Assembly (NCBI GenBank): GCA_050298595.1
Contig: JBNKUM010000085.1
Span: 83,971 to 147,970 of the forward strand
Source of the DNA: Gammaproteobacteria bacterium
GTDB taxonomy: Bacteria > Pseudomonadota > Gammaproteobacteria > GCA-001735895
DNA length: 64,000 bases
Direction of reading: 5' to 3'
In this document: positions 11,444 to 55,895 of the stretch, piece by piece
How positions within the stretch are numbered: the stretch's first letter is position 1
Layout: every line of letters starts with the position of its first letter
Translations under genes and position numbers: made by a program
Notes under the pieces: model-generated
Seen by the model: the letters and a program-made list of their open reading frames with translations, nothing else
The model's database searches: none
What the model was told of the DNA's origin: nothing

Positions 11444-14280
11444 CTGATTACAAATCGACCCTGAATCTGCCCGATACCGGCTTCCCCATGCGTGGGAACT
11501 TGGCCAAGAATGAACCCGCGCGGTTGAAAAACTGGCAGGATAAAGGCCTGTATCAGCGAATTAGGGAATCTCGTAAAGGGCAAACGCCCTTTATACTGCA
11601 CGATGGCCCCCCTTACGCGAATGGTGATATCCATATCGGGCATGCAGTCAACAAGATCCTAAAGGATATGATCGTTAAGGCGCGCACGCTAAATGGTAAC
11701 GATGCACCCTATGTACCCGGTTGGGATTGCCACGGTCTGCCCATCGAACACGCAGTAGAAAAAGAAATCGGTAAGGCTGGTATTGCAGTCGAGCCCGATC
11801 AATTCCGTCAGGCCTGCCGTGACTTTGCTAAAAAGCAGATTGAAAAGCAGAAAACCGATTTCATCCGCCTGGGCATTCTGGGCGACTGGGATAACCCCTA
11901 CCTGACCATGAACTTCGCCACCGAAGCCAACATTATCCGTTCGTTGGGCAAAATCATCGAAAACGGACATCTGCACAAGGGTGAAAAACCCGTGCACTGG
12001 TGTACCGATTGTGGATCTGCACTGGCTGAGGCCGAAGTAGACTATAAGGATAAAACCTCATGCGCCATCGACGTTAAGTTTCTGGTAGAAGATGAGAAAG
12101 CTTTTATTGAATGTTTTCATAACGTGCCCGACTATCATGGTGAAGGCCCACTATCTGTAGTCATCTGGACCACTACACCCTGGACCCTGCCTGCTAATCT
12201 TGCGGTTTCCTTACACCCTGATTTTGAATACGTAATTGTCGAAGTCACTACGGAAGAAGGCAAACAGCGACTGGTACTGGCTGAAGATCTGCTTAAAGAC
12301 TGTATGGCTCGATATGCCATTGAAGACTATAAAGTCATCGCTTACGGCACCGGTAGTGCGCTGGAAAACCAGACCCTGAAACACCCATTCTATGATCGTG
12401 AATCCTTAATCATTATTGGTGATCATGTCACGCTGGAAGCCGGTACTGGAGCCGTACACACAGCCCCTGGTCATGGTCAGGATGACTTTATCATAGGCCA
12501 GAAATATGGCCTGGAGCCCTATAACCCAGTGGGTGATAATGGCTGTTTTCTACCCAATACCGAACTCTTCGCCGGAGAGCATGTATTCAATGCCAACGAT
12601 CATGTGGTTGAGGTATTGCAGGAGCATAACGCACTGATGCATACGGAAAAACTTCTGCATAGCTACCCTCACTGCTGGCGTCATAAAACCCCTATCATCT
12701 TCCGTGCTACCCCGCAGTGGTTTATCAGTATGGAGAAAGAAGGTCTGCGTCAGACCGCTCTTGATGAAATCAAGAATGTACAGTGGATTCCTGACTGGGG
12801 TCAGGCACGTATCACCGGTATGATCGCCAACCGTCCTGACTGGTGTATCTCGCGTCAGCGTTTCTGGGGTGTGCCCATTCCCTTATTTATTCATAAACAG
12901 ACCCAGCAGTTGCATCCAGACACTTCAGCGTTGATTGAAAAGGTCGCGTTACAGATGGAACAGAAAGGTATTGCTGCCTGGTTTGATCTAGATACTACTG
13001 AACTACTGGGCGAGGATGAAGAGAACTACAGCAAGACTACCGATACACTGGATGTATGGTTTGACTCGGGTAGCACTCATTTCAGTGTCATGCATAACGA
13101 TGACCGTTTTCACTTCCCTGCTGACATGTATCTGGAAGGTTCCGACCAGCACCGTGGCTGGTTCCATAGCTCACTGCTCACCTCCTGCGCAATGAATGGA
13201 GTCGCACCATACAAGCAGGTGCTGACACATGGCTTTACCGTTGATGCCAAAGGCATGAAGATGTCCAAGTCGGTGGGTAACGTGGTCGCGCCACAGAAAG
13301 TCTTCAACTCGCTGGGGGCCGATATCCTGCGCCTCTGGGTTGCCTCTACCGATTATTCCGGTGAGATGAGCATCTCGGATGAAATCCTCAAACGCACCTC
13401 CGATTCCTATCGCCGTATCCGCAACACCCTGCGCTTTCTGCTGGCCAACATGAATGGTTTTGAACCCACACAGCACATGGTAGATAAGGACCAGCTATTG
13501 TCACTGGATCACTGGGTGGTGGCACAGACTCTGCAACTGCAGGATGAACTCAGGCAATTGTTTGATAGTTACCAATTTCATATAGCGATGCAGAAGATCA
13601 CCTTCTTCTGCTCTGAAACTCTTAGTGGTTTCTATCTGGATGTCATCAAGGATCGGCAGTACACAACACAGGCAGACTCACTGCCGCGTCGATCCTGCCA
13701 GAGCGCCATGTACCATGTTGCGGAAGCGATGACACGCTGGATTGCGCCCATCCTGAGTTTTACTGCCGATGAGGTCTGGGAAAACCTGCCCGGCGAGCAT
13801 GCTGAACTGGGCGTGTTTACCGCCACCTGGTATGAAGGTCTATTCGACTTCCAGGATTCCGAACTGGGCGATGAAGTTTGGACTCAGCTATTGGCTATTC
13901 GCGAACAGAATACTTTAGTGCTGGAAAAGCTACGTCAGGATGGAAAGATTGGTTCGTCACTGGATGCGGAAGTGACCATTTACTGCGACGATGGCCTCTT
14001 GCGCTCGTTGGAGATGCTAAGCGAAGAGCTGCGCTTTATCCTCATTACATCAGAAGCCACCCTTGCCAAGCTTGAAGAGGCACCAAATGACGTCGTCATG
14101 GTTTCATTGCAAGGTGACAGCCATGAGTTCGCGATACAGGCTACCCCCAGTGAGCATGCCAAATGCGTGCGTTGCTGGCACCATCGCCCAGAAGTCGGCA
14201 GCATTAAAAAGCACCCAGAACTATGCGGTCGCTGTGTAGACAATGTCGACGGTGAGGGTGAAACACGCCAGTATGCTTAA
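11440..14280 (+). CDS. ileS: Isoleucyl-tRNA synthetase
   Basis: HIGH motif ([12 protein letters not shown]), KMSKS motif, C-terminal Zn-finger cysteines. GTG start overlapping the ribF stop. Confidence 0.95.
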
Positions 14281-14761
14281 GTATCTATGGATCAGTGTGC
14301 TGGTCATTATTGCAGACCAGCTCACAAAATGGCTGGCTAACACCCAACTTGAATACCACCAGGCCGTCACTGTGCTACCTTATTTCGAGTGGTTTCTATC
14401 CTACAACCCTGGCGCTGCTTTCAGCTTTCTGTCCGATGCGGGCGGCTGGCAGCGCTGGTTTTTTACTGTGCTAGCTATAGTCATCAGCATCGCACTGTTT
14501 GTGTGGATCAAAAAGCTAAGCAACAACGAAAAGCTTACCGCTATTGCCTTAACACTGATATTGGGTGGCGCTATAGGCAACTTAATCGATCGTGTTCTTT
14601 ACGGCTATGTCATCGATTTCATTCAGGTATGGCTAGGCAGTTATGCCTGGCCGGCTTTTAATATCGCCGACTCAGCTATCTCAGTCGGTGCAGTGGTACT
14701 GCTGACAGCAGGCATACTTAGCCCCTATCTGGATAATACCGATGAAAAAAATCACGCCTGA
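14273..14761 (+). CDS. lspA: Lipoprotein signal peptidase II
   Basis: Membrane protein with LspA motifs ([15 protein letters not shown]). Start chosen at MLKYLW overlapping the ileS stop. Confidence 0.85.
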
Positions 14762-15194
14762 TAGTATCGTCACCCTGCACTATCAGCTTGGTTATACAGA
14801 CGGTAGCCTGCTGGAAGACACCTTCGATCAGGAGCCCATGACATTTCGACTGGGCACTGGCGAATTAGCAGAAGGACTGGAACTGTCTTTAATGGACTTA
14901 TGTGAAGGTGAAGAACAGACCCTGGACATCGGCCCCGATCTTGCGTTTGGATATACCGATCAGGCAATGATCCAGCAGTTGCAAAGGGATGAGTTTGCCG
15001 AAGATTTTGAGCTGGAAGCAGGCTTGATTATAGAGTTCAGCACCCCTGGCGGCGAGACCATTCCCGGCACAATTCTTGAGTTTGATGATAAAAAGGTAAA
15101 GGTCGACTTCAATCATCCTCTGGCCGGGCATGTGGTTAGATACCGGGTCAAGATCGTGCAGATTGAAACCCCCTCCATGGAAACCATTAACTGA
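14742..15194 (+). CDS. fkpB: FKBP-type peptidyl-prolyl cis-trans isomerase (SlpA/FkpB)
   Basis: [28 protein letters not shown]... FKBP domain. Conserved position between lspA and ispH. Confidence 0.8.
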
Positions 15195-16129
15195 TGCAAA
15201 TCCTGCTCGCTAATCCGCGTGGATTTTGTGCCGGAGTGGATCGAGCAATCGATATCGTCGAGCGAGCACTCGAATTATTCGGCGCACCTATCTATGTACG
15301 TCATGAAGTCGTGCATAACCGCTATGTAGTTGACGACCTGAAAAACAAAGGTGCCATATTCGTTGATGAATTGGATCAAATCCCCGATGATCAATATGTC
15401 ATCTTCAGCGCGCACGGGGTTTCCCGCGCGGTACAGGATCAGGCCAGACAACGTGGCCTCAAGGTATTTGATGCCACCTGCCCACTGGTAACCAAGGTTC
15501 ACCTTGAGGTATCTCGATATAGTCTGCAAGGTATAGAAACTATTCTTATAGGTCATAAAGGACATCCTGAGGTTGAAGGCACCATGGGACAATACGATCA
15601 TAGTCACCGGGGAAACATCTATCTGGTAGAGTCCGTTGAGGACGTATCCCAGCTAAAGATTAACAACCCGCAACAGCTCAGGTTTGTCACTCAGACCACG
15701 CTCTCTATGGACGATACAAGCAGAGTGATAGATGCATTACACAAAAATTTTCCGTCCATTAAGGGACCGAAGAAAGACGATATCTGTTATGCCACTCAGA
15801 ATCGTCAGGATGCCGTTAAAAAGCTAACCGAAGACTGTGATTTAATCCTGGTCGTTGGTTCACGCAATAGCTCTAACTCAAACCGCCTGCGTGAAATCGC
15901 GCAAAACCACCAGATTGATGGCTACCTGATTGACGGCGCTGAAGACATAAACCCCGAGTGGCTTAGCGGTAAAAAACGCATTGGTGTAACCGCTGGCGCA
16001 TCAGCGCCTGAATTACTGGTTAAAGGTGTTATCGATTTTCTATGCGGACTGGAACAATTTGAAGTGAAGTCACTGGGGTTCACCGAGAATGTTACTTTTC
16101 AATTACCAAAAGAATTACGCAGAGACTAA
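15194..16129 (+). CDS. ispH: 4-hydroxy-3-methylbut-2-enyl diphosphate reductase
   Basis: [19 protein letters not shown]... canonical IspH/LytB. Confidence 0.9.
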
Positions 16130-42950: not shown

Positions 42951-44141
42951 CTACTGCAGTTGTGAGTTTCGGTGCTGCAGTATAAACATTTCTATCAATC
43001 GATGCAGTTGCTCAAAATTTAGCAGATGTAAGTTTGCGAGAGTTATTTTTAAATATTGATCTAGAAGCTGGATTCCCAATCTAATCGGCAGCTCACTCAG
43101 GCTGACCAATAACTGATCAATAAACTTGCTGTTAGCCATTTCATTTTCTATCAGTATCACACAGCGCCCTGCTGCCTCGGGTACCTCTTCAGTTTTTATA
43201 CCCGCCTGATTAAATTGTTGCCTCAGGTAGCTAGCCATAACCATAGATTGAACAGCCTGTTGTTGAAGCGCAGAAAAACCTTGCATACGGAAATAAATCA
43301 AACAATGTAAGGTAGCCTGAGGATCTAGCGAAGCGTCGGATAGCATGCCAACCGATAAGGGATTTTCTGCCAGCGTTTTCCATTGATAGGTTTCATCATT
43401 CTTACCCGCCATAGGAACAGGCAGATAACCTGAAAATTTAGCATTCGATAAGACTGCATTGCAGCCTTTATCCAGGCCGCATATATAAGCCACATCCAGA
43501 TGCAGGATGTCGGCCCTGAGCCATTCGGAAGCTTCACTTAGTGCCAATAGATATTGTCCTGATCCATCTAAATATAAAGGGATATCGAGTTGATCCAGCT
43601 TACCCCTGATGGACTCCAGATAGTTAACATTATCATCAATACCTGGCAGTGACACCACCAGCGCAGCACAATCATCATTGAGAAAATCTGTAATATTTTC
43701 CGGATTTAAAAACCTTACTCTCAGATTCAACTCTTTGGCCACATCAGCAACCTCATCCAGCCCCTTCATCAATACGATCTGATTTCTCTGCCGCCTGTTT
43801 TTCTGTTGATACTTAATCACCATAGACAGACAAGCAAAGATAGCCATGCGGCGATTTAATGCTGCCAGTGATACAGAAGGGTAACCGGTAAATACAGCTA
43901 TACGTTGTTGTAAATCAAAAATTGTCGATAGCACACCCTGTTGCCTCGAATCAGGAATCTTTGAGTTATAGCCTTCCGGACATATTTTATTAGCTATGCG
44001 AGATGCCGTTAATATTGCATTACTCTCTAGTGCAATCGACTGATACAACGCATTCATCTGCTCACCCGAATTCGAACAAAGCGATTCGATATCTTTTATG
44101 CCACGCAGTTGATCAGCAGAAATTTCAGGTAATAAATTCAT
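42951..44141 (-). CDS. Highly divergent glycine dehydrogenase subunit 2 (GcvPB)-like protein, probably non-catalytic
   Basis: Colinear resemblance to GcvPB: IPLYLDGSGQ ~ VQLYYDGANL; ILHLDVAYICGL at the position of the PLP-Lys motif HLNLHKTF; YLPVPMAG ~ YLPVPLVE. The Gly-rich PHGGGGPG loop is absent. Confidence 0.4.
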   Translation of the reverse strand: MNLLPEISADQLRGIKDIESLCSNSGEQMNALYQSIALESNAILTASRIANKICPEGYNSKIPDSRQQGVLSTIFDLQQRIAVFTGYPSVSLAALNRRMAIFACLSMVIKYQQKNRRQRNQIVLMKGLDEVADVAKELNLRVRFLNPENITDFLNDDCAALVVSLPGIDDNVNYLESIRGKLDQLDIPLYLDGSGQYLLALSEASEWLRADILHLDVAYICGLDKGCNAVLSNAKFSGYLPVPMAGKNDETYQWKTLAENPLSVGMLSDASLDPQATLHCLIYFRMQGFSALQQQAVQSMVMASYLRQQFNQAGIKTEEVPEAAGRCVILIENEMANSKFIDQLLVSLSELPIRLGIQLLDQYLKITLANLHLLNFEQLHRLIEMFILQHRNSQLQ

Positions 44142-44171
44142 GAATTAGTCATCGCATCTAATGCCGATATT

Positions 44172-45488
44172 TCATGTGAATTTTGGTTTAACGGGGCAAC
44201 CCGCAGTAGAAAGGTTTTTAACCACGGTAGCCATCTTTTGTACAAAGCGATCAATCATCGATAGATCGTGTTGATCAGTACAGTGAATCAATAAACAGTT
44301 CTCCAGCTCAGGGAATTCATCCCCCAAAGGGTAGCCAGCCAGGATATTGTGACCAGCCAGAATTTGCAGGGCACGGTTCAGGTCGATGCTATCGAAATGG
44401 ATTACACACTCATGGGTAAACGCTGATTCAAACTTCAAGCTGACAGCAGGAATCTGGACTAATTTCTCTATCAGACTGGTTAAATTTTGCTGCGCCAGTT
44501 TACCTGCTTGCTGGATTTGATTAGCAGATTGGCAGGCGAAAAACGACTGGATAGTCATCAACTCGTTTATTAATAAGCCAGGCTCTATAGTTTTATCTAG
44601 CCTAGCTTTATCTACATTGGCTTTTTCTGAGTTAGCAGAATCAGCTCGCAGCGTAAGCGCATTACCTTTCCTGCTCAAAGGGAAGCCAAGGGGTTGTAAA
44701 TCGCACAAGGTATAATCAATATATTCACTCAACTGGGCAGGAGGTTTCAGATAAGTAAGTGATAAAGCATCAGACAGCACGATGGTTTTAATGCCGTATT
44801 GTTGCGCCCAATCTGCAACGTCAGCGACATTTTCCAGTACACCGAAAAAATTTGGATAAGGCAATAAGATAGCCAACAGGTCATCAGCAACCAACTCTTC
44901 TAGCTGTGACCGGGAAACCTGCCCTGTTAGCGTATCAAAACCGATAACTACAGTCTCTATACACTGGTATTTTAACTGTGTTCGTAGCGCCGAACGCAGG
45001 CCTGGCGGCATGCTTGCTGCGAGCAAAACCTTTTGTCTTATCCCTGTGCCAGCCTGCTGCTCATGACTATACAGCTCAAGCAGTAAATCTTTTAACACCT
45101 GGCTTAGACACTCACCCAGCACTTTAGCATTTTCCATGCCTACGAGTTGCGCAAGTTTCGACTCGACCCCCTTTTTTATTTCCTGATAACTTTCCAGTGA
45201 GGCCCCACAAGCTGGGTATGGCATTAATCGAGAGATTGAATCCAGGGCTTGAAGCGCAACCGGTCTGTAGAAATCATAAGATCCTGCAGCAAGAAAGTTC
45301 ATACCAGCTCCATCCCGAGACAATAGCTCAACACAGGAAAGAACGAGATCTTTTTCTGTTTCAACAGGGCGAATTTGTTCTGCTGGCAACTTCAATCTGG
45401 GCAGTGATATACCGCTTTCAGATGCCAGCTTCTGCAGTTGATTTTCGGTTAACATAAAGGCATATATTGTCAGTGTGTTAAGAAGCAA
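44172..45488 (-). CDS. Highly divergent glycine dehydrogenase subunit 1 (GcvPA)-like protein
   Basis: FLAAGSYDFYRPVALQAL ~ FLGGGxxxHxVPxVVQAL. MPYPACGASLESYQ at the position of the conserved TAYTPYQPEVSQG. The alternative start at MLTENQ would give 427 aa. Confidence 0.45.
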   Translation of the reverse strand: MLLNTLTIYAFMLTENQLQKLASESGISLPRLKLPAEQIRPVETEKDLVLSCVELLSRDGAGMNFLAAGSYDFYRPVALQALDSISRLMPYPACGASLESYQEIKKGVESKLAQLVGMENAKVLGECLSQVLKDLLLELYSHEQQAGTGIRQKVLLAASMPPGLRSALRTQLKYQCIETVVIGFDTLTGQVSRSQLEELVADDLLAILLPYPNFFGVLENVADVADWAQQYGIKTIVLSDALSLTYLKPPAQLSEYIDYTLCDLQPLGFPLSRKGNALTLRADSANSEKANVDKARLDKTIEPGLLINELMTIQSFFACQSANQIQQAGKLAQQNLTSLIEKLVQIPAVSLKFESAFTHECVIHFDSIDLNRALQILAGHNILAGYPLGDEFPELENCLLIHCTDQHDLSMIDRFVQKMATVVKNLSTAGCPVKPKFT

Positions 45489-45547: not shown

Positions 45548-48500
45548 CTACTTACACACCAGCCTGGGAGCGCGCTTTTTCTCGTCATCTTCTTCATCCT
45601 CAGTTTCAATACTGGCAACCTTGTCAACAAAGCTCATTGTCTTAACCATCTGTTGATGATCTAGCTCTCCACTATCAAACAACGTTTCAAGCAGATTCGA
45701 AACTTTATCCATATCTTCATTAGAAACCACAACCGTATCTTTAAATGTAAACGTCCCCTGATTGATTATTCTGAAAGGATTATTGATTTGTAAAATAGAA
45801 GTATCGGGAGAAAACCAGTTAACCGTCCCGGTAGGTGTGATCAGCCAGTCAGTACCTAAAACTCCACTAACCAAATCTACGCGACCAGAAGTTGTCAAAC
45901 CTGTACCATTAATAGTTCCCGTATCCCACAACATGTCGCCCGCATAGTTTAGGTTATTAGCTTTAAGCGTCCCTCCTACAAGTTCTATCCTGGCAATTTG
46001 GAGTGGCGTATTGGCAACTAAAGACGACCCTGATGAAATCGATATACTTCCTCCACCGGTCAAGCTTGACATAGCATTAACAGTTAACTCAGTGTTATTT
46101 AGAGCTAAAACTTTACCTTGCTGCACCTGTATTGATGAAGCCTGGACAGCAACTAACAGAGGATTTTGTGTATTGCTACCTATAAAACTACCCCCATCGA
46201 CGATTACGGATGTAGATGCAGAAATCACCAGATTCCCTTCAGCCTGAATTTCGCTACTACCCGACATCGTCACGCTCGTTGGCAAGACAGGAATGTTCTG
46301 CACTCTGGAAACCACTCCATCAACCAACTCCCAGTTTATGGTCGTATCGTAAACAAGGGGATGAATATCTACAGCAAACTCAGAAGTATTGTTTAAGGAT
46401 AAAAGTCCTGAACCTAAAAACTGGGCGTTACTGCTGGCTGATGACAGGGAGACACCATCTGATAAGGAAAGTTGTGCGCCATTCGCCCAGGACATAATGC
46501 CTTTATTGTCTATAGAGCCTGTACCGGTAAAGACATTAGTTCCACTACTGGCATCTATCGCAAACAATGCATTGTTCACCAGATTGCCATTTATCTGAAA
46601 GGGAGTACCTACACTGGTTTGAATTTCACCCCAGTTAACAGCGTCAGCAGACAGGGTGCCCTGATCAAGTTTAAGCGTTGCACCTAAATTATATAAAACA
46701 CCTGTACCCGTTCTGGACACTAAGGCATCGGATGCAGAAATGGCTAACCCACCACTACCATTGAACGGATCAAGTATAAAAGCATTGCCACTTATATCAA
46801 GGCTACCACCAGCGCCTACTTTGATCTGGCCATGCGCCTGAATTCCTCTAACAGCAGCAGTAGAGGTGATATCAACAACTGGGGTAGTTGTTCCATCAAT
46901 AAATACATCCGTGCTTGAATCAGGCGCCACCGTCGCAGTAAGCCCAGTAGAGAGATCCATCCAGTTATCTAGATCACTCCAACTGGTTGGAGAAGTAGAT
47001 GATAACCCCGTCCATTGATAGATATTACTGGTATCTATGCTACCAATTGTATAACTGGCCGTATCAGCAATAACTGATCCATAATCAACAGTGCCTGCTG
47101 AAGTTGTCGCAATAGGGTCAACAATGGTGTCAAAGCCACTCCCTGAAAAACAACCAGTACCCGTGCAACCAACTACCGATACAGTGTTGCTAGAACTATC
47201 AGCAGCTAGTACAGCTGAGCTATCTTGCCAGTTCAAAATCAAATCACCACCATTAATAGCAACAGTATTCGCACTCACATAACTTGACACCATGCCATCT
47301 GATGCCGCCAGGACTGAATATAAGCCCCCAGAATTAAACACTAGATCACCATTAATAGTTAATGTGCCTGGGCTTGTTGAGTCATCTCCACCAGCGATCA
47401 CGCCACCATTCACGGTTACACTGCTGTTTATAGCAGCCCATCCAGAACTACTGAGACCTGAACCAGGTCCGAGCTCAAGCACTCCTCCAGTTAAAGTCAG
47501 CGTATTGTTATCCTGTATGTCGATCCATCCTGGATTTTTGAAATTTATAAACTGAGTATCTATAGTCGAGATAGAAGTAGTAAAGCTATTAAGATTAATA
47601 TTCCCCTTATTATAAAACTGCCCTGTACCTGTGATACTGGCATTCTCCATATTGATATCACCGCCATTGGTCAACATTGAAGTGGCGTCTAAATCTAGTG
47701 TTGTAAACTGCATATCGATCGAATGTCCCTGCTGCACATTCCAGCTGGTATTTTGTAGTTTTAGAGCACCGCCTCCGGTTATTGATGTATTACCATTTAC
47801 CATTAAGCTACCAGCATTGGTAGCAAGATCTACATTAAAACTTGCGGTTGAAGCAAACGTTTTAAAGTTAACCAGACCTGAGCCATCATTATCTATGTCT
47901 GGATTCAATATAAGGTTTAATGCACCGGTGCCTGTTGCAGAGATAGTGAGATTACTAGCAGCTGCATCAAAAATAATGTCATTGTGTGCATTTAACGTAA
48001 GTGAAACAGCGCTACTCGATAGAGAATTGATATCCGCCAGGATGGTAATATCACCTGCTTGACTATTACCCCCAGCTGTAGCTGTTGAAACAGTGACATT
48101 TGTGCCTGCGTTGAGAGCAGCTTCTATAGATGCGACACTCAAATAAGCACTGTCACCCGTTGAAATAAAATCAGGGTCACCTGTGATGAGAGCATCTGCA
48201 GTCGAACTAATTGTTATATTATTTGGATCAATCAACCACTCACCTGCATTACCATTAAGTGCCGAGGCATCCGGCACCGATGTAATATCCAGATAGTGTT
48301 TACCAGAGGTTTCTATAAACCCACCATCACCACTAACCGCACCACCACGCGCAGTTACTTCACCATGTACGTGCACATCTTTCTCTGCAAATACGATGAC
48401 TTTGCCTCCATTTCCTGTCGTGTCGGCATCAGCATTGACACTGGCACCGGCAGCTATCGTGGTTGAGCTTGCATTGTGGATCTCGGGATTCAACCCCTGC

Positions 48501-49414
48501 TGATCACCACCGATAAGAATCTCTCCACCAGCAGTATCACCAGATGCATTGATATTCGCACCCTCATCAATGTTGACTGTATCGCCAAGTATCTCGATAT
48601 ACCCGCCCTGAATACCTGAGGCGTCTACGCGGCCACTAACCTGATTGGTAGCTTTGGCAACCAGGCTGATACTTCCATCAGCATTCTGCACCAGACCTCC
48701 AGCACGAATTGAACCACTGTGCTTCAAGGCCCCTGCAAACAAACTGGCACTACCCTGATTCGCTAAAATTTTACCCAGATTGGTCACCGTGTTTTCACTT
48801 CCAGTAACTTCAAACTGTATGGCCGGATTCTCCAGACTGCTGATGGTAATCGATTGCCCTGCCGCCAGTATGATATTTCCATTATCGACTTCGATAACGC
48901 CACCGTTTTCGATATTCGGTGCGATCAATACAATATTGCCATTATCTCCTGCATGGATATAGCCCTGATTGCTAATTCCAGCTGAGCTATCACCTTCAAA
49001 CTTTAGATTTCCATTCAGGTAATCACTATCTGTTATATTCAATGTGGAAGCGAAAAAACCGGCTGTATTGATTTGCGCACCAGCCCCAACAAGGAGGCCA
49101 TGTTGATTAATCAGAAATACCTTACCATTTGAATTCAAATTACCCAGCAACTGGCTAGGGTTATTGGATATCACGCGATTTAATACGGAACTCGCCGCAG
49201 AGGGCTGAATAAAATTGGTGGTTTGTCCGGCGCCGATATTGAACGATTGCCAGTTGATGATGGCATTATTACTGTTCGTAACATTTAAAACATTTACACT
49301 GGGATTAGAAAAGGTAGCCGAGCCGTGAACAACCTGCCCACCCGCAGGGTTGGCGTTGGCCATTTGACTACTCAGAATCAGACTGATGGTAAAAGCTAGC
49401 GTATTGTATTTCAT
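45548..49414 (-). CDS. Two-partner-secretion exoprotein (TpsA; filamentous-haemagglutinin-type beta-helical protein)
   Basis: Signal peptide then TPS domain (NPAGGQVVHGSATFSNP...AIINWQSFNIGAGQTTNF...SAASSVLNRV...NGKVFLINQHGLLVGAGAQIN). About 1100 aa of Gly/Asn/Thr/Ser-rich beta-helix repeats. Acidic C-terminus. Confidence 0.8.
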   Translation of the reverse strand: MKYNTLAFTISLILSSQMANANPAGGQVVHGSATFSNPSVNVLNVTNSNNAIINWQSFNIGAGQTTNFIQPSAASSVLNRVISNNPSQLLGNLNSNGKVFLINQHGLLVGAGAQINTAGFFASTLNITDSDYLNGNLKFEGDSSAGISNQGYIHAGDNGNIVLIAPNIENGGVIEVDNGNIILAAGQSITISSLENPAIQFEVTGSENTVTNLGKILANQGSASLFAGALKHSGSIRAGGLVQNADGSISLVAKATNQVSGRVDASGIQGGYIEILGDTVNIDEGANINASGDTAGGEILIGGDQQGLNPEIHNASSTTIAAGASVNADADTTGNGGKVIVFAEKDVHVHGEVTARGGAVSGDGGFIETSGKHYLDITSVPDASALNGNAGEWLIDPNNITISSTADALITGDPDFISTGDSAYLSVASIEAALNAGTNVTVSTATAGGNSQAGDITILADINSLSSSAVSLTLNAHNDIIFDAAASNLTISATGTGALNLILNPDIDNDGSGLVNFKTFASTASFNVDLATNAGSLMVNGNTSITGGGALKLQNTSWNVQQGHSIDMQFTTLDLDATSMLTNGGDINMENASITGTGQFYNKGNINLNSFTTSISTIDTQFINFKNPGWIDIQDNNTLTLTGGVLELGPGSGLSSSGWAAINSSVTVNGGVIAGGDDSTSPGTLTINGDLVFNSGGLYSVLAASDGMVSSYVSANTVAINGGDLILNWQDSSAVLAADSSSNTVSVVGCTGTGCFSGSGFDTIVDPIATTSAGTVDYGSVIADTASYTIGSIDTSNIYQWTGLSSTSPTSWSDLDNWMDLSTGLTATVAPDSSTDVFIDGTTTPVVDITSTAAVRGIQAHGQIKVGAGGSLDISGNAFILDPFNGSGGLAISASDALVSRTGTGVLYNLGATLKLDQGTLSADAVNWGEIQTSVGTPFQINGNLVNNALFAIDASSGTNVFTGTGSIDNKGIMSWANGAQLSLSDGVSLSSASSNAQFLGSGLLSLNNTSEFAVDIHPLVYDTTINWELVDGVVSRVQNIPVLPTSVTMSGSSEIQAEGNLVISASTSVIVDGGSFIGSNTQNPLLVAVQASSIQVQQGKVLALNNTELTVNAMSSLTGGGSISISSGSSLVANTPLQIARIELVGGTLKANNLNYAGDMLWDTGTINGTGLTTSGRVDLVSGVLGTDWLITPTGTVNWFSPDTSILQINNPFRIINQGTFTFKDTVVVSNEDMDKVSNLLETLFDSGELDHQQMVKTMSFVDKVASIETEDEEDDEKKRAPRLVCK

Positions 49415-49442
49415 AATGATGGCTCCTCTGGTCTACAGTAAA

Positions 49443-50909
49443 TTACTGCAGACGGCATTCAAACTCCTCTTTATCACTACCTTTGGCACCAAACAAATTA
49501 ATCTTTTTCTGCATTTTCAGTGACAACTGTGAAGGCACAGGGATCTTGTCAAACTTCTGGAAAGGCGGAACAAAGTTCAGGCGTATGGTCTTCCCGGCAA
49601 GCCCTGCTAAACCAGCCTCACCCTTACCCAGATTAACAACACTGCCATCGACACCCTCAACCGCAACATCACCGTCTCGCACATTAACATATAACCCCGG
49701 CTCAATATTCTGTCTATCTGAGCCACTAAACAGATCATCTCTAATTGTGATTCGATCAGGTCTGGGCGCATTACCCATGGTACGAAGATGGACCGGAAAA
49801 TCAGGTATGATCACCGGTTTGGTGAATCCATTTTTGACAAATGCTGCCTTACCATTTTCCAGTAGCATTTTGCCGCCTTCAAATTGCAACTCTATGGCAC
49901 CACTCCACACCCTGGCATACATGCCACTGCCGCTTAAGGCATAAGCTGGTTTCAAAAAGAATTGCAACAGTTTTGCAACCACCGTTTCACTCAGTGGGTC
50001 CTGCAATGCCGTGTTGTCCACACAATCACCATCACAGGCCAGGTCAAAGCCAGTACCACGGATACCTATGGTTGCTGTTGGCGTTGCCACTCGATAGGAG
50101 CGCTCATTCAAGCGCCCAATAGCGCCAGTGATCAGACGCAAGCCACCTCGAATAAACCTTAAAAATGCATTATTCTCTGCTGGCACTTCAGGCTTATAGT
50201 AATGTTCTTCAATCTTAAAGGCTGAAGACGGACTCATCGTGATACGGCTTTTATCGTTAAACACTAAAACAGCAAACGATTTAATTCCGGTTTGTATTTG
50301 ATCAAGCTCGTATACTGCTGCACCAGTCGATAAGGGGCGTGATTTATTATTAGCGTCCAGTGCACTGGCCTTACCCTGCATTAAAGCAATACGGCCGATA
50401 ACCTTTGATTCATTCTGCGAATTCTTATTCAGTGCTCGATTTTCTTCATCACACTCAGCACTTTCACACAGTCGGGCGTCAAATTCAGTACCCCGAATAC
50501 CGATGGTGGCTACTCGAGTATTGATACGAAAAGCACTGGGGCGACTTTTACTGATGAGACCTGTTATGGCTCGAAAGCCGCCTCGAATCAAATTCATCAA
50601 TGCGCTTTCACTACCCTTAGTCGTATTTACGTCCTCAATTTTAAACGTTGTATTAGGTCGAAGCGTCATGCGCGTACCGTCTTCCAGTTTGATCACGGCA
50701 AAGCTGCTAGTGCCTGTATTCAAAGTTTCACCTTTATACAATGACCCACCTTTGCCCAGAATCTGGAGAGCATCATTGCCAACCTGCCCTGTTAGCACTC
50801 CTCGGGTATAAGCCACCTCACCTACTTCAGTCGCGGCAAATACAGAACCTTGCAGGCACAGTAAAAATGAGAAAAACAAACTACGGTGAATCATGCTTTT
50901 TCTATCCAT
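49443..50909 (-). CDS. Secreted tandem FecR-domain protein encoded between tpsB and tpsA
   Basis: Signal peptide. Two FecR-type domains (FAVIKLEDGTRMTLRPNTTFKIED...IGIRGTEFD and FAVLVFNDKSRITMSPSSAFKIEE...IGIRGTGFD). Cys pairs CESAECDEE and CDGDC. RGGxRxITGxI motifs. Confidence 0.7.
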   Translation of the reverse strand: MDRKSMIHRSLFFSFLLCLQGSVFAATEVGEVAYTRGVLTGQVGNDALQILGKGGSLYKGETLNTGTSSFAVIKLEDGTRMTLRPNTTFKIEDVNTTKGSESALMNLIRGGFRAITGLISKSRPSAFRINTRVATIGIRGTEFDARLCESAECDEENRALNKNSQNESKVIGRIALMQGKASALDANNKSRPLSTGAAVYELDQIQTGIKSFAVLVFNDKSRITMSPSSAFKIEEHYYKPEVPAENNAFLRFIRGGLRLITGAIGRLNERSYRVATPTATIGIRGTGFDLACDGDCVDNTALQDPLSETVVAKLLQFFLKPAYALSGSGMYARVWSGAIELQFEGGKMLLENGKAAFVKNGFTKPVIIPDFPVHLRTMGNAPRPDRITIRDDLFSGSDRQNIEPGLYVNVRDGDVAVEGVDGSVVNLGKGEAGLAGLAGKTIRLNFVPPFQKFDKIPVPSQLSLKMQKKINLFGAKGSDKEEFECRLQ

Positions 50910-50917
50910 AGCCTGCC

Positions 50918-52465
50918 TCAGAATCGGTAAATCAAGTTAAAGTGGGCCTTATCGTCACCATCCTGGTTGATCGTGGCATCAGGACCACCACCTTTATTGA
51001 TGACAGCATAATCAAGCGCAACACTTAGCTGTTCTTTCCAGCTCCAGCGTAACCCGACTCCATAGGAAGAAAGATCGTAATCTCCACTGTCGTTAAATTT
51101 GACCTTAGCCTGATCAATAAAAACCAGATAGCGCATATTTGCAAAGGCCGGGGTCCAGATTTCAAAAGAAGTTTGATAGCCGCTATCACCGATTACGGAA
51201 CGTTCTTCAAAACCACGCAGCGTAGAACTACCACCCACACCAAATTGTTCGCCTGAAATCAGTAAATCACTACTACTTTGCCCACTTAAACCCGCGTGCA
51301 AGAGCCAGTCTTTAGAGAAAATCAGATCATAAGCAAGGTTGTATCGTATAGCAGTCCAGTCATTTTTGGCGCCTGTACGGAGCAGTTCATAATCCTCATC
51401 ACTATTGTTACTGCCAGAATCAATATTCAAATCATAGAAAAAATCACCACTAATGGAGCTTGATTTGGCTGTATAGGTAAAACCATAACCCAGTTCTAGA
51501 GGAAAACTCCCTACATCGGCATTTGATACGTTCCCATTAATATCAATCTCATTCTCGAAGAGTTTATTTTGAAACCCAACAGACCACTGGTGATTAAAGT
51601 TGGTATCGGTCAACATCGGACGCGAATAAGTAAAACCAAATACCGAGCCCTTTCCGGTAATAGCTACACCTCCACCCACTTCACCAGAATTGACCTCCGA
51701 ATCTGAAAATATAAAATCCAGATTGGCACCATGTGAATATAGCGGTATATGGTAGCTCAGACCAAACTGATTGGTGGCATCCGGGTCTTCTGGAGCTACG
51801 GTCAAGGTTGCGGTTATCGTGTGATCGCGGTTGAATAGATTGCCATTCTGATATCCCAGAGTACTGCGGAATTCACTGGTATCTTTGCTACCAGTATTAT
51901 CCAGCGTCAGGAAAAAAAGCTGCGGGTTACGATCATTGACGGTTAAATTAGCATCAATGGTATCTCCCTCGTCACCTTCCTTAAACTTAAGCACCATATT
52001 CTTGGAAGCGTGATTATTAGCAAGTTTCAAAGAACGCGACAATTCCCTGGTATTTGGTGTACTACCAACACTTAACTCAGGAAGAGAGCTACGGATATTC
52101 CGTTCATTAAAGAACTTATTACCCGATATATTTATCGCCCCGATAGTAAAATGAATAACATTCAACTCGACGGTACCAGAGATTAATTGCTGAGGAGGCA
52201 GGGACACTCGGTGAAAACTATAACCCTGTTTAATAATTTCCTGTTCCAGGGCATCAGCCGCAGCAGATAACCCATCCAGACCATAATGCTCACCTAGATA
52301 GGATTGCAGTACTTTTTGCGCTTTGTCCGCTATTGGGTTATCACCAGTGACGTCAAAGCTAGAAACCGTAAAACGCATTGGCGTATAAGTAGTTTGGGCA
52401 TACCCTACCATTGGCAACAGAGTAACAAAAAATAAAACAAAGGCACTTCCCTGAGGTATTCGCAT
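50918..52465 (-). CDS. TpsB outer-membrane transporter (ShlB/FhaC/HecB family, POTRA + 16-strand barrel)
   Basis: Signal peptide at the internal start MRIPQGSAFVLFFVTLLPMVGYA. POTRA-region motifs. C-terminal beta-barrel ending in ...FNLIYRF (terminal aromatic residue). Confidence 0.8.
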   Translation of the reverse strand: MRIPQGSAFVLFFVTLLPMVGYAQTTYTPMRFTVSSFDVTGDNPIADKAQKVLQSYLGEHYGLDGLSAAADALEQEIIKQGYSFHRVSLPPQQLISGTVELNVIHFTIGAINISGNKFFNERNIRSSLPELSVGSTPNTRELSRSLKLANNHASKNMVLKFKEGDEGDTIDANLTVNDRNPQLFFLTLDNTGSKDTSEFRSTLGYQNGNLFNRDHTITATLTVAPEDPDATNQFGLSYHIPLYSHGANLDFIFSDSEVNSGEVGGGVAITGKGSVFGFTYSRPMLTDTNFNHQWSVGFQNKLFENEIDINGNVSNADVGSFPLELGYGFTYTAKSSSISGDFFYDLNIDSGSNNSDEDYELLRTGAKNDWTAIRYNLAYDLIFSKDWLLHAGLSGQSSSDLLISGEQFGVGGSSTLRGFEERSVIGDSGYQTSFEIWTPAFANMRYLVFIDQAKVKFNDSGDYDLSSYGVGLRWSWKEQLSVALDYAVINKGGGPDATINQDGDDKAHFNLIYRF

Positions 52466-52988
52466 GACTATAAATTCTTCATTCTCGAATTTAAAATCAT
52501 ATCGACTGGTGATTACATTGTCCATGATAAACTGGCTCAGGACATGCTATTTAGAGTACTTTCTATTAACTTGGACTTAATAAAGGATACTCTGTCTAGA
52601 ATTATCATACCCACATGACAAATCTAAATAGTAAAACCATTTTGCTGCGCATAAACATGCTTTAACGCAGTAATAAACATACTTTGCCATAACTGTTTCG
52701 GCTTTGCGCTGACTCTCAAAACCTCTCAAACACTTCGATTGATACAGGTAATCACCAGCATCCAATAATAGCCCAGCCTGCAGATCCAGAGCCTGAAACA
52801 TTTTTACCAATAACAGCGATAGCGCTATAGAAGGAACATCTAGTGCACTTTTCCAGGATCCTGTCGGATTTAGGGTGAATCTACTGCGGAAAAGGCATTT
52901 TGGCCAACAATCCGATCATTTTCGTTAAATAGGCTCACTATTCGCCTCAAATGATCGAAATATTTCGACTCAAAATACCGTTCCTTCG

Positions 52989-55689: not shown

Positions 55690-55895
55690 ATAGTTTATTA
55701 AACCAACTGCGGTGTTAGTTAGCTTCTATAAGATCCTTGAGCCTAATTATCAACTTCGGGGCGATCAGTGTCATACTGGTGTGCATGCCCGAGATTTTTC
55801 GGGAAGCCTGATGGATGCCCTCTTGCCCCACCTGAACCTTCTGGTTCAAGGTTGATAGTCTGCGACGGCATCGCGGTTGGTATTTTCTCCTTCTA
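55690..55895 (+). ncRNA. ssrS: 6S RNA (SsrS)
   Basis: Conserved zapA-ssrS-ygfA locus. CTGGTGTGCATGCCCGAG...CACCTGAACCTTCTGGTTCAAGGTTGATAGTCTGCGACGGCATCGCGG closely parallels the E. coli 6S 3' half (GGUGAGCAUGCUCGG...CACCUUGAACCAAGGGUUCAAGGGUUACAGCCUGCGGCGGCAUCUCGG). A 5' segment ACCAACTGCGGTG can pair with the 3' CGCGGTTGGT closing stem. Ends are approximate. Confidence 0.7.

Follow-up and report, generated by a model that had tools for sequence, protein, structure and literature searches.

Among two-partner secretion (TPS) systems, the ways in which an adhesin is retained on the cell surface or released from it are known for only a few pathogens, through the FHA prodomain or the HMW1/HxuA disulfide loop. 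HMW1 and HxuA are held by a small C-terminal periplasmic domain, where an intramolecular disulfide “knob” locks the C-terminus at TpsB (PMC5422565), and a folded retention module in the periplasm holds LapA-type adhesins in their outer-membrane channel (PMC10990149). The accessory proteins of CdiBAI, BcpAIOB, EtpBAC/HMW1ABC and HxuCBA comprise immunity proteins, the small lipoprotein BcpO, cytoplasmic glycosyltransferases and a TonB-dependent receptor (PMC5422565). Here we describe a real, conserved and apparently uncharacterised three-component variant of two-partner secretion, carried by a 64,000-nucleotide stretch of DNA (“the window”) from a Gammaproteobacteria bacterium (GenBank assembly GCA_050298595.1, contig JBNKUM010000085.1, positions 83,971 to 147,970). 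In this locus a gene for a protein with two FecR domains (the FecR protein) lies between tpsB, encoding the transporter, and tpsA, encoding the exoprotein. The systems just listed likewise combine TpsA and TpsB with a dedicated accessory gene, but in none of them is the accessory a periplasmic FecR-domain protein. We consider it very probable that this TPS subclass employs the FecR protein as a periplasmic component of its own, and this protein and TpsA both end in a single, unpaired cysteine that may join them.

The three genes lie in a row on the minus strand, in the order tpsB, tandem-FecR gene, tpsA:

50918..52525, minus strand: tpsB, an open reading frame (ORF) of 535 aa; a probable start at 52465 gives 515 aa including a signal peptide
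49443..50909, minus strand: FecR-protein gene, 488 aa; Pfam FecR 7.8e-26 in two stretches
45548..49414, minus strand: tpsA, a 1288-aa TPS-domain exoprotein; Pfam TPS 3.5e-27, TIGR01901 6.8e-21

The original prediction, made from the DNA sequence, of a three-gene minus-strand operon agrees with the ORF list to the nucleotide, including the gaps of 8 nt (tpsB/FecR gene) and 28 nt (FecR gene/tpsA). We also accept the tpsB start that it chose, as the internal ATG at 52465 yields a normal signal peptide (MRIPQGSAFVLFFVTLLPMVGYA, cleaved before Q). TpsB is a transporter of the Omp85 family that combines a pair of POTRA domains with a ShlB-type barrel (Pfam ShlB 7.2e-21, POTRA_2 3.3e-12, POTRA 3.4e-5) and has recognizable similarity to CdiB structures (phmmer 4e-11 to 6wim and 1.8e-10 to 6wil). 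The hallmarks of type Vb secretion are present in the TpsB domains, in the signal peptide and TPS domain of TpsA, and in the co-oriented genes, which are parted only by the FecR gene; the one defining feature that the window TpsB lacks is the H1 plug helix of the FhaC/CdiB style.

The arrangement is widespread. A word-indexed protein search with the FecR protein returned 1465 homologues at E≤1e-5, the top 120 of which, all ~485 aa long and with identities of 55% or more, belong to uncultured Gammaproteobacteria, mostly marine ones. When 50%-identity representatives were searched, 353 clusters were found at E≤1e-30, most of them full-length with 30-48% identity, and a scan of one genome per species turned up relatives of this protein in at least 579 loci. 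The carriers are metagenome-assembled genomes of Gammaproteobacteria, many Betaproteobacteria (including Ramlibacter, Rhodoferax, Caenimonas, Variovorax, Gallionella, Sideroxydans and Iodobacter) and one member of the Desulfobacterales; a tblastn search of plasmids with the FecR protein found nothing.

To describe the neighborhoods, 86 loci were searched with the window TpsB, the TPS domain and the FecR protein and the neighboring ORFs were clustered; 82 loci remained after removal of near-duplicates. A TpsB gene was present in 77 of the 82, always on the same strand as the FecR gene and in 74 loci no more than 700 nt away from it. Four of the five loci without TpsB are cut by contig ends, leaving L066 as the only genuine exception. 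A TpsA-like gene is adjacent in 51 loci. Lineages differ in gene order, which is B-F-A in the window and in other loci, A-F-B in, for example, the cultured carrier Iodobacter violaceini, or A-B-F, so the linkage of FecR protein and TPS genes has outlasted rearrangement. The window triplet is flanked by pepP and GcvP-like genes, and the triplet with a 59%-identical FecR orthologue lies between proB and a sulfotransferase cluster; because these contexts differ, the module travels as a unit, and its recurrence in an unrelated context and in dozens of further loci argues against a chance juxtaposition. This neighborhood search bears out the proposal that the locus departs from the two-gene TPS unit. 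The core of the conserved module is the FecR protein together with TpsB.

The FecR protein itself is built as follows:

50832..50909, minus strand: signal peptide, residues 1-26, cleavage VFA/A (...SVFA/ATEVG)
50466..50828, minus strand: FecR domain 1, residues ~28-148, followed by a conserved C148-x4-C153 pair
50022..50396, minus strand: FecR domain 2, residues ~172-296, ending in a C292-x3-C296 pair
49446..49922, minus strand: C-terminal module, residues ~330-488, a beta-rich domain followed by a flexible tail
49455..49457, minus strand: codon of Cys485, in the tail ...FECRLQ; the single, unpaired, invariant C-terminal Cys

The claim made for this gene, that it encodes a signal-peptide protein with two FecR domains, held: the profile search recovered FecR in two separate stretches. 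Nor does the gene look like a pseudogene, as it is intact and highly conserved, with a mean column identity of 67% among 31 orthologues. In the alignment of these orthologues the N-termini are variable and hydrophobic and end in AxA. No anti-sigma domain, membrane anchor, transmembrane helix or output domain was found in the FecR protein. The AlphaFold2 model based on the 31 orthologues (mean pLDDT 77.8, pTM 0.73) predicts beta-sandwich domains at ~28-148 and 172-296, a disordered linker (299-327), a beta-rich domain (~330-445) and a low-confidence tail (446-488). Domains 1 and 2 are clearly duplicates of one another (hhalign probability 99.8%, E 3.6e-30); we considered the third domain as a degenerate FecR repeat and rejected this, as its hhalign probability is below 1% against either domain and it has no Pfam match. 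The C-terminal module instead carries its own motifs, PGLYVNVRDGDV and FVPPFQKFD. Variants with three FecR domains also occur: P0121, P0123 and P0127 (~700 aa) and a 704-aa copy in the Desulfobacterales locus L086 (9998-12109). This last copy is flanked by TpsB and by a TpsA that is longer than 3300 aa and has the C-terminus ..TRLICR.

TpsA is an exoprotein with a conventional N-terminus and an unusual end:

48641..49309, minus strand: TPS secretion domain, residues 36-258 (best stretch of Pfam PF05860), after the signal peptide MKYNTLAFTISLILSSQMANA, cleaved before N
45551..45607, minus strand: C-terminal tail ETEDEEDDEKKRAPRLVCK, ending in the lone Cys1287 (codon 45554-45556)

The TPS domain reads NNPSQLLG...INQHGLLVG at its NPNL/NPNGI-type motifs, and TIGR01901 is the adhes_NPXG family. 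The suggestion that TpsA lacks a VENN toxin module was correct: there is no VENN motif in the protein and no Pfam match over residues 260-1288. TpsA is probably a beta-helical adhesin without a toxin module, and PADLOC defense-system models matched none of the three proteins. The tail, which ends in LVCK, had been described as acidic; what the original prediction overlooked is that the conserved part of it is the terminal Cys. The 40 residues before it are charged and of low complexity (28% D/E/K/R vs. 9% in the body of the protein), as expected for a segment that might lie threaded in a pore.

An unexpected feature is that the terminal cysteines of the two proteins match. Among complete TpsAs encoded next to a FecR or TpsB gene, 37 of 40 have a Cys within their last 6 residues (e.g., LVCK, LICR, PVCQ, PMCN, EICR, DVCTR), and of the three that lack it, one looks frameshifted, one fragmentary and one broken by an N-run. 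Among the FecR homologues, every one of the 66 complete proteins carries a Cys within its last 8 residues. The background for a terminal Cys is 11% of 539 other ORFs in the same loci (Fisher p 1.6e-28). This residue is the sole Cys of the last 45 in 42 of 43 TpsAs and in 66 of 66 FecR proteins, and Cys485 is invariant both in the alignment of 31 orthologues (A1) and in one of 48 sequences reaching down to 30% identity (A2). The total number of cysteines is odd in 33 of 37 TpsAs, and 43 of 66 FecR proteins have five. The other cysteines of the window proteins sit in evident local pairs (C148 with C153 and C292 with C296 in the FecR protein; C750 with C755, a C-x4-C pair, in TpsA, which ends ...RAPRLVCK), leaving C485 and C1287 unmatched. 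The window TpsB has no Cys at all and so cannot be the disulfide partner. Because two proteins that are almost always co-encoded each keep one unpaired C-terminal Cys, the simplest reading of these lone residues is an intermolecular disulfide, putatively formed in the periplasm.

TpsAs that have related TpsBs and no FecR neighbor give a small comparison. Two of them carry a pair of cysteines at the C-terminus (..GDCTTEEVRRGKEGCGG; ..SPCPPNDPDCAR), and the third carries none. The two-Cys ends belong to plasmid loci of Methylomagnum (L089, at 23962) and Aquabacterium (L091, at 24842), with spacings C-x12-C and C-x6-C that resemble the cis-disulfide anchor of HMW1/HxuA.

We therefore come to a reading that we prefer to each of its rivals, while holding it only tentatively: that the FecR protein is a trans-acting periplasmic “stopper,” disulfide-linked to the C-terminus of TpsA. 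TpsB would export the TpsA adhesin across the outer membrane. The FecR protein would be exported by Sec and fold in the periplasm as two FecR beta-sandwich domains plus the C-terminal module, becoming too bulky for the TpsB pore. Its C485 would form an intermolecular disulfide with C1287 of TpsA, the charged, low-complexity tail of TpsA would remain threaded in the TpsB pore, and the FecR protein would thereby fix the adhesin on the cell surface; reduction of the disulfide could release it. The gene content, the domain identities, the conserved linkage and terminal cysteines, the likenesses of fold and the fusions to OmpA barrels (below) are observations; that the FecR protein lies in the periplasm, that the disulfide forms, that it serves as a stopper and that TpsA is an adhesin are inferences.

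The proposed likeness to HMW1/HMW1B and HxuA/HxuB of Haemophilus influenzae would lie in a cell-retained TpsA, a periplasmic C-terminus and Cys chemistry. There, the two cysteines are within TpsA and no extra protein is involved, whereas here TpsA contributes one terminal Cys and a separate, conserved partner the other; the two-Cys C-terminal loop of the HMW1 type is absent from the window TpsA and from 42 of 43 related TpsAs, in which a single Cys occupies the last 45 residues. HMW1 does have a third partner, the cytoplasmic glycosyltransferase HMW1C, which bears no relation to FecR.

The FecR domains have a fold like that of the anti-sigma regulators FecR/PupR and also like the retention domain of a type 1-secreted adhesin (LapA/LapE type; MpIBP region I, PDB 5ix9). 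Domain 2 matches the NCBIfam LapA retention model NF033682 at residues 173-236 with 36.5 bits (E 4.9e-9), below the cutoff of 50, and no LapG, LapD or di-alanine site was found. RTX adhesins of the LapA type carry the retention module as their own N-terminus, leave by the type 1 pathway and are freed through LapG proteolysis; here a stand-alone protein, encoded within a type Vb system, is the candidate module. The periplasmic FecR-fold domain of FecR/PupR regulators is likewise present in the window protein, but those regulators also have a cytoplasmic anti-sigma domain and a transmembrane helix, whereas here a signal peptide leads directly into FecR domain 1. There are two copies of the FecR domain, with an unrelated Cys-tailed module behind them, no ECF sigma factor or TonB transducer gene lies nearby, and the FecR equivalog model NF007296 gives 15.8 bits against a cutoff of 385. 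As for CdiBAI, there is no VENN/pretoxin region, C-terminal toxin or immunity gene, and a terminator directly follows the window tpsA. The locus is not a FecR/FecI/FecA signaling system, an HMW1-type cis anchor, a curated LapA retention module or a CDI system.

Variants of the module, in which its parts are split or fused, bear on where the FecR protein would sit. Plasmid 4 of Variovorax sp. SRS16 (NZ_LR594669.1; L087, 8929-14096) carries a split module with tpsB and a tpsA ending in ..KKMYCN, together with a 156-aa single-FecR protein that has no terminal Cys and a 108-aa secreted “PGLYV” protein that ends ..AVDCEVR and matches the distal part of the C-terminal module of the window protein. 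As this plasmid carries the Cys-tailed end as a gene of its own, that end is separable from the rest of the module. In two distant relatives, P0140 (L097, 5979-8126) and P0247 (L098, 10001-11824, with a paralogue at 13610-15331), the tandem FecR domains and third domain are followed by an OmpA-like, eight-stranded outer-membrane barrel that replaces the Cys tail. The soluble part of OmpA faces the periplasm, and we assume the same for these fusions; because the barrel stands in for the Cys tail, the FecR module would lie at the inner face of the outer membrane. In L098, moreover, a TPR/SlipAM (Slam-like) gene stands next to the gene for yet another FecR protein.

Of the functions first put forward for the FecR protein (gate, chaperone, sensor or cargo), the analysis thus keeps a periplasmic partner close to the outer membrane, with no single option proven. 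A broader proposal, held more loosely still than the stopper itself, is that these loci represent a widespread, undescribed type Vb class in which a tandem-FecR protein might serve as a disulfide-linked, potentially redox-releasable trans-anchor, a type V counterpart of the LapA retention module. Since the tandem-FecR/“PGLYV” module is also fused to OmpA-type barrels, it might even be a general periplasmic plug for outer-membrane barrels.

Several observations weigh against the stopper. About 30 of the 82 loci, mostly from Comamonadaceae (Ramlibacter, Caenimonas, Variovorax), have a FecR-TpsB pair with no TpsA in view, and 14 of these have at least ~10 kb of flank on both sides. The FecR Cys tail is kept even in these loci; therefore its partner must be encoded elsewhere, or the Cys has some other role such as homodimerization. 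The OmpA-barrel fusion genes in L097 and L098 are not next to TpsB, so the FecR module is not strictly tied to TPS. The 67% column identity is more than a passive plug would call for, and the FecR domains therefore likely bind something specific. The LapA retention-module match remains below the NCBIfam cutoff (36.5 vs. 50 bits), and the control TpsAs without a FecR neighbor number only three (two with two cysteines, one with none).

The rival that survives best, though we judge it unlikely, is that the FecR protein is a periplasmic gate or chaperone that docks on the POTRA domains and/or on unfolded TpsA and controls or assists entry into the pore, with the terminal Cys as an auxiliary feature. 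FecR/PupR domains bind the STN domain of TonB-dependent transducers, to which such docking can be likened. The tightest linkage of the FecR gene is indeed with TpsB (77/82), including the FecR-TpsB pairs without a nearby TpsA, and conservation is far higher in the FecR domains than in the TpsA passengers, whose lengths run from ~1,250 to more than 3,300 aa. The H1 plug helix and linker known from FhaC and CdiB are also missing from the window TpsB: its mature form has only ~8 residues before POTRA1, and the alignment with CdiB 6wim begins at about the third mature TpsB residue vs. chain residue 49, which makes a trans gate conceivable. The same short N-terminus is seen in ~70 homologues and, against the gate, in related TpsBs without a FecR neighbor; for that reason we rejected the H1-less TpsB as a specific adaptation to a FecR partner and do not use the missing helix as an argument. 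Across this TpsB clade (window 50918-52465 and L001-L086), 5-25 residues separate the signal peptide from POTRA1, often Ala/Pro-rich in Betaproteobacteria. A gate or chaperone would leave unexplained both the lone Cys at the extreme C-terminus of TpsA and of the FecR protein, and the exchange of the Cys tail for an outer-membrane barrel.

It is more doubtful again that TpsB exports the FecR protein itself, as a substrate or co-cargo exposed on the surface and possibly disulfide-linked as the tip or base of the adhesin. The FecR-TpsB pairs without an adjacent TpsA would suit it, in an order typical of a substrate followed by its transporter, as would weak NCBIfam matches of the FecR protein to FecR-domain proteins of Leptospira (Lsa33, a named surface adhesin, and the lipoprotein LipL45). 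The TPS domain is the recognition element for TpsB, and the FecR protein has none; its two probable intramolecular disulfide pairs and its compact, modeled beta-sandwiches would be ill-suited to the TpsB pore, and the OmpA-type barrel fusions imply a periplasmic location, provided that they are oriented like OmpA.

Least probable by some way is a signaling role by analogy with FecA-FecR-FecI or FecR-CHASE2, in which the FecR protein would sense the state of TpsA/TpsB (contact, secretion) and relay it to an inner-membrane partner: the fold matches anti-sigma regulators and Burkholderia operons do pair periplasmic FecR-domain proteins with CHASE2 histidine kinases (PMC5192318), but the protein has a cleavable signal peptide and no anti-sigma domain, transmembrane helix or output domain, and no ECF sigma factor, TonB-dependent transducer, CHASE2 or other conserved signaling gene was found in the window neighborhood or among the recurrent families of 80 loci. 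A CHASE2 link for the tandem-FecR family was considered separately and rejected as no CHASE2 gene recurs near the family; the LysM-FecR pairing in Burkholderia is real (PMC5192318).

In the window, tpsB, the FecR gene and tpsA look like one bounded transcription unit, because a terminator hairpin lies downstream and 463 nt of non-coding DNA lie upstream:

52526..52988, minus strand: presumed promoter region, the pepP/tpsB interval; 463 nt non-coding, no ORF of ≥80 aa
45493..45516, minus strand: intrinsic-terminator-like hairpin, AAAAGCCCTG-TTTT-CAGGGCTTTT, followed by a T-rich tract, directly 3' of tpsA

The hairpin (45516-45493) has a 10-bp stem and is the strongest terminator-like site of the scanned region. 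Sigma-70-like matches fall at 52628-52601 and 52524-52496, but the 463-nt region has no more of these sites than shuffled sequence would lead one to expect.

The neighbors of the triplet include pepP, UPF0149, zapA/zapB, the GcvP-like genes, dgkA, lgt and thyA. Two adjoining genes at 42951-45488 on the minus strand (427/438 aa and 396 aa) give weak GcvPA and GcvPB matches (121.7 bits vs. a cutoff of 364, and 42.5 bits vs. a cutoff of 441), a divergent, split pair of glycine-dehydrogenase-like PLP enzymes that the terminator parts from tpsA. These GcvPA/GcvPB-like genes were considered as members of the unit and rejected, since the terminator intervenes and they are missing from other contexts. 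A 6S RNA gene (ssrS; Rfam RF00013, 101 bits) lies at 55701-55883 on the plus strand in an ordinary arrangement, between zapA and ygfA-like genes and upstream of the 5-formyltetrahydrofolate cyclo-ligase gene; no tRNA genes were found in the window. In other genomes, the FecR-TpsB pairs without TpsA sit among housekeeping genes, namely those for a DUF3683 FAD oxidase, a Tim44-like protein, an ABC1-family kinase (ubiB-like) and aspartyl-tRNA synthetase.

Other TPS-associated arrangements came to light in the same searches. Plasmids of Klebsiella quasipneumoniae (L088), Cupriavidus (L090) and Methylosinus (L092) carry a different recurrent cluster of tpsB, an exbB/tolQ-like gene, exbD, tonB, a putative porin, a hypothetical gene and a YbjN-domain gene, with a peptidyl-prolyl isomerase gene in a variable position. 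A huge tpsA is visible in L088 and L092 and not in L090. Ahead of the cluster in Methylosinus come genes for an ECF sigma factor, a true FecR-type protein and a protein with an STN domain. A plasmid of Nostoc sp. UHCC 0302 (L096, 9635-21835) encodes CHASE2, DUF928, an S-layer-family protein, TpsB, a CHAT-domain protein and a further TPS-domain protein, a multi-component, TPS-like cyanobacterial arrangement without FecR.

Had the triplet belonged to an already well-characterized family, its interest would be less; our literature search yielded no paper on it. A FecR-domain protein tied to a TpsA/TpsB pair was likewise not found in the literature covered, which was thin for subscription journals, and the 2017 TPS review mentions no FecR-domain partner (PMC5422565). 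Database names for the FecR protein are only “FecR domain-containing protein” or “hypothetical protein.” For genes with the former name we offer an annotation rule, a TpsA with a lone C-terminal Cys together with a FecR/“PGLYV” partner.

If our reading is true, a conserved third component in the periplasm would define a new subclass of type Vb secretion, and FecR domains would gain a role outside anti-sigma signaling. As the carriers are mostly uncultured marine Gammaproteobacteria and freshwater and soil Betaproteobacteria, the module may matter for the attachment of these organisms to particles in the environment and for the formation of biofilm.

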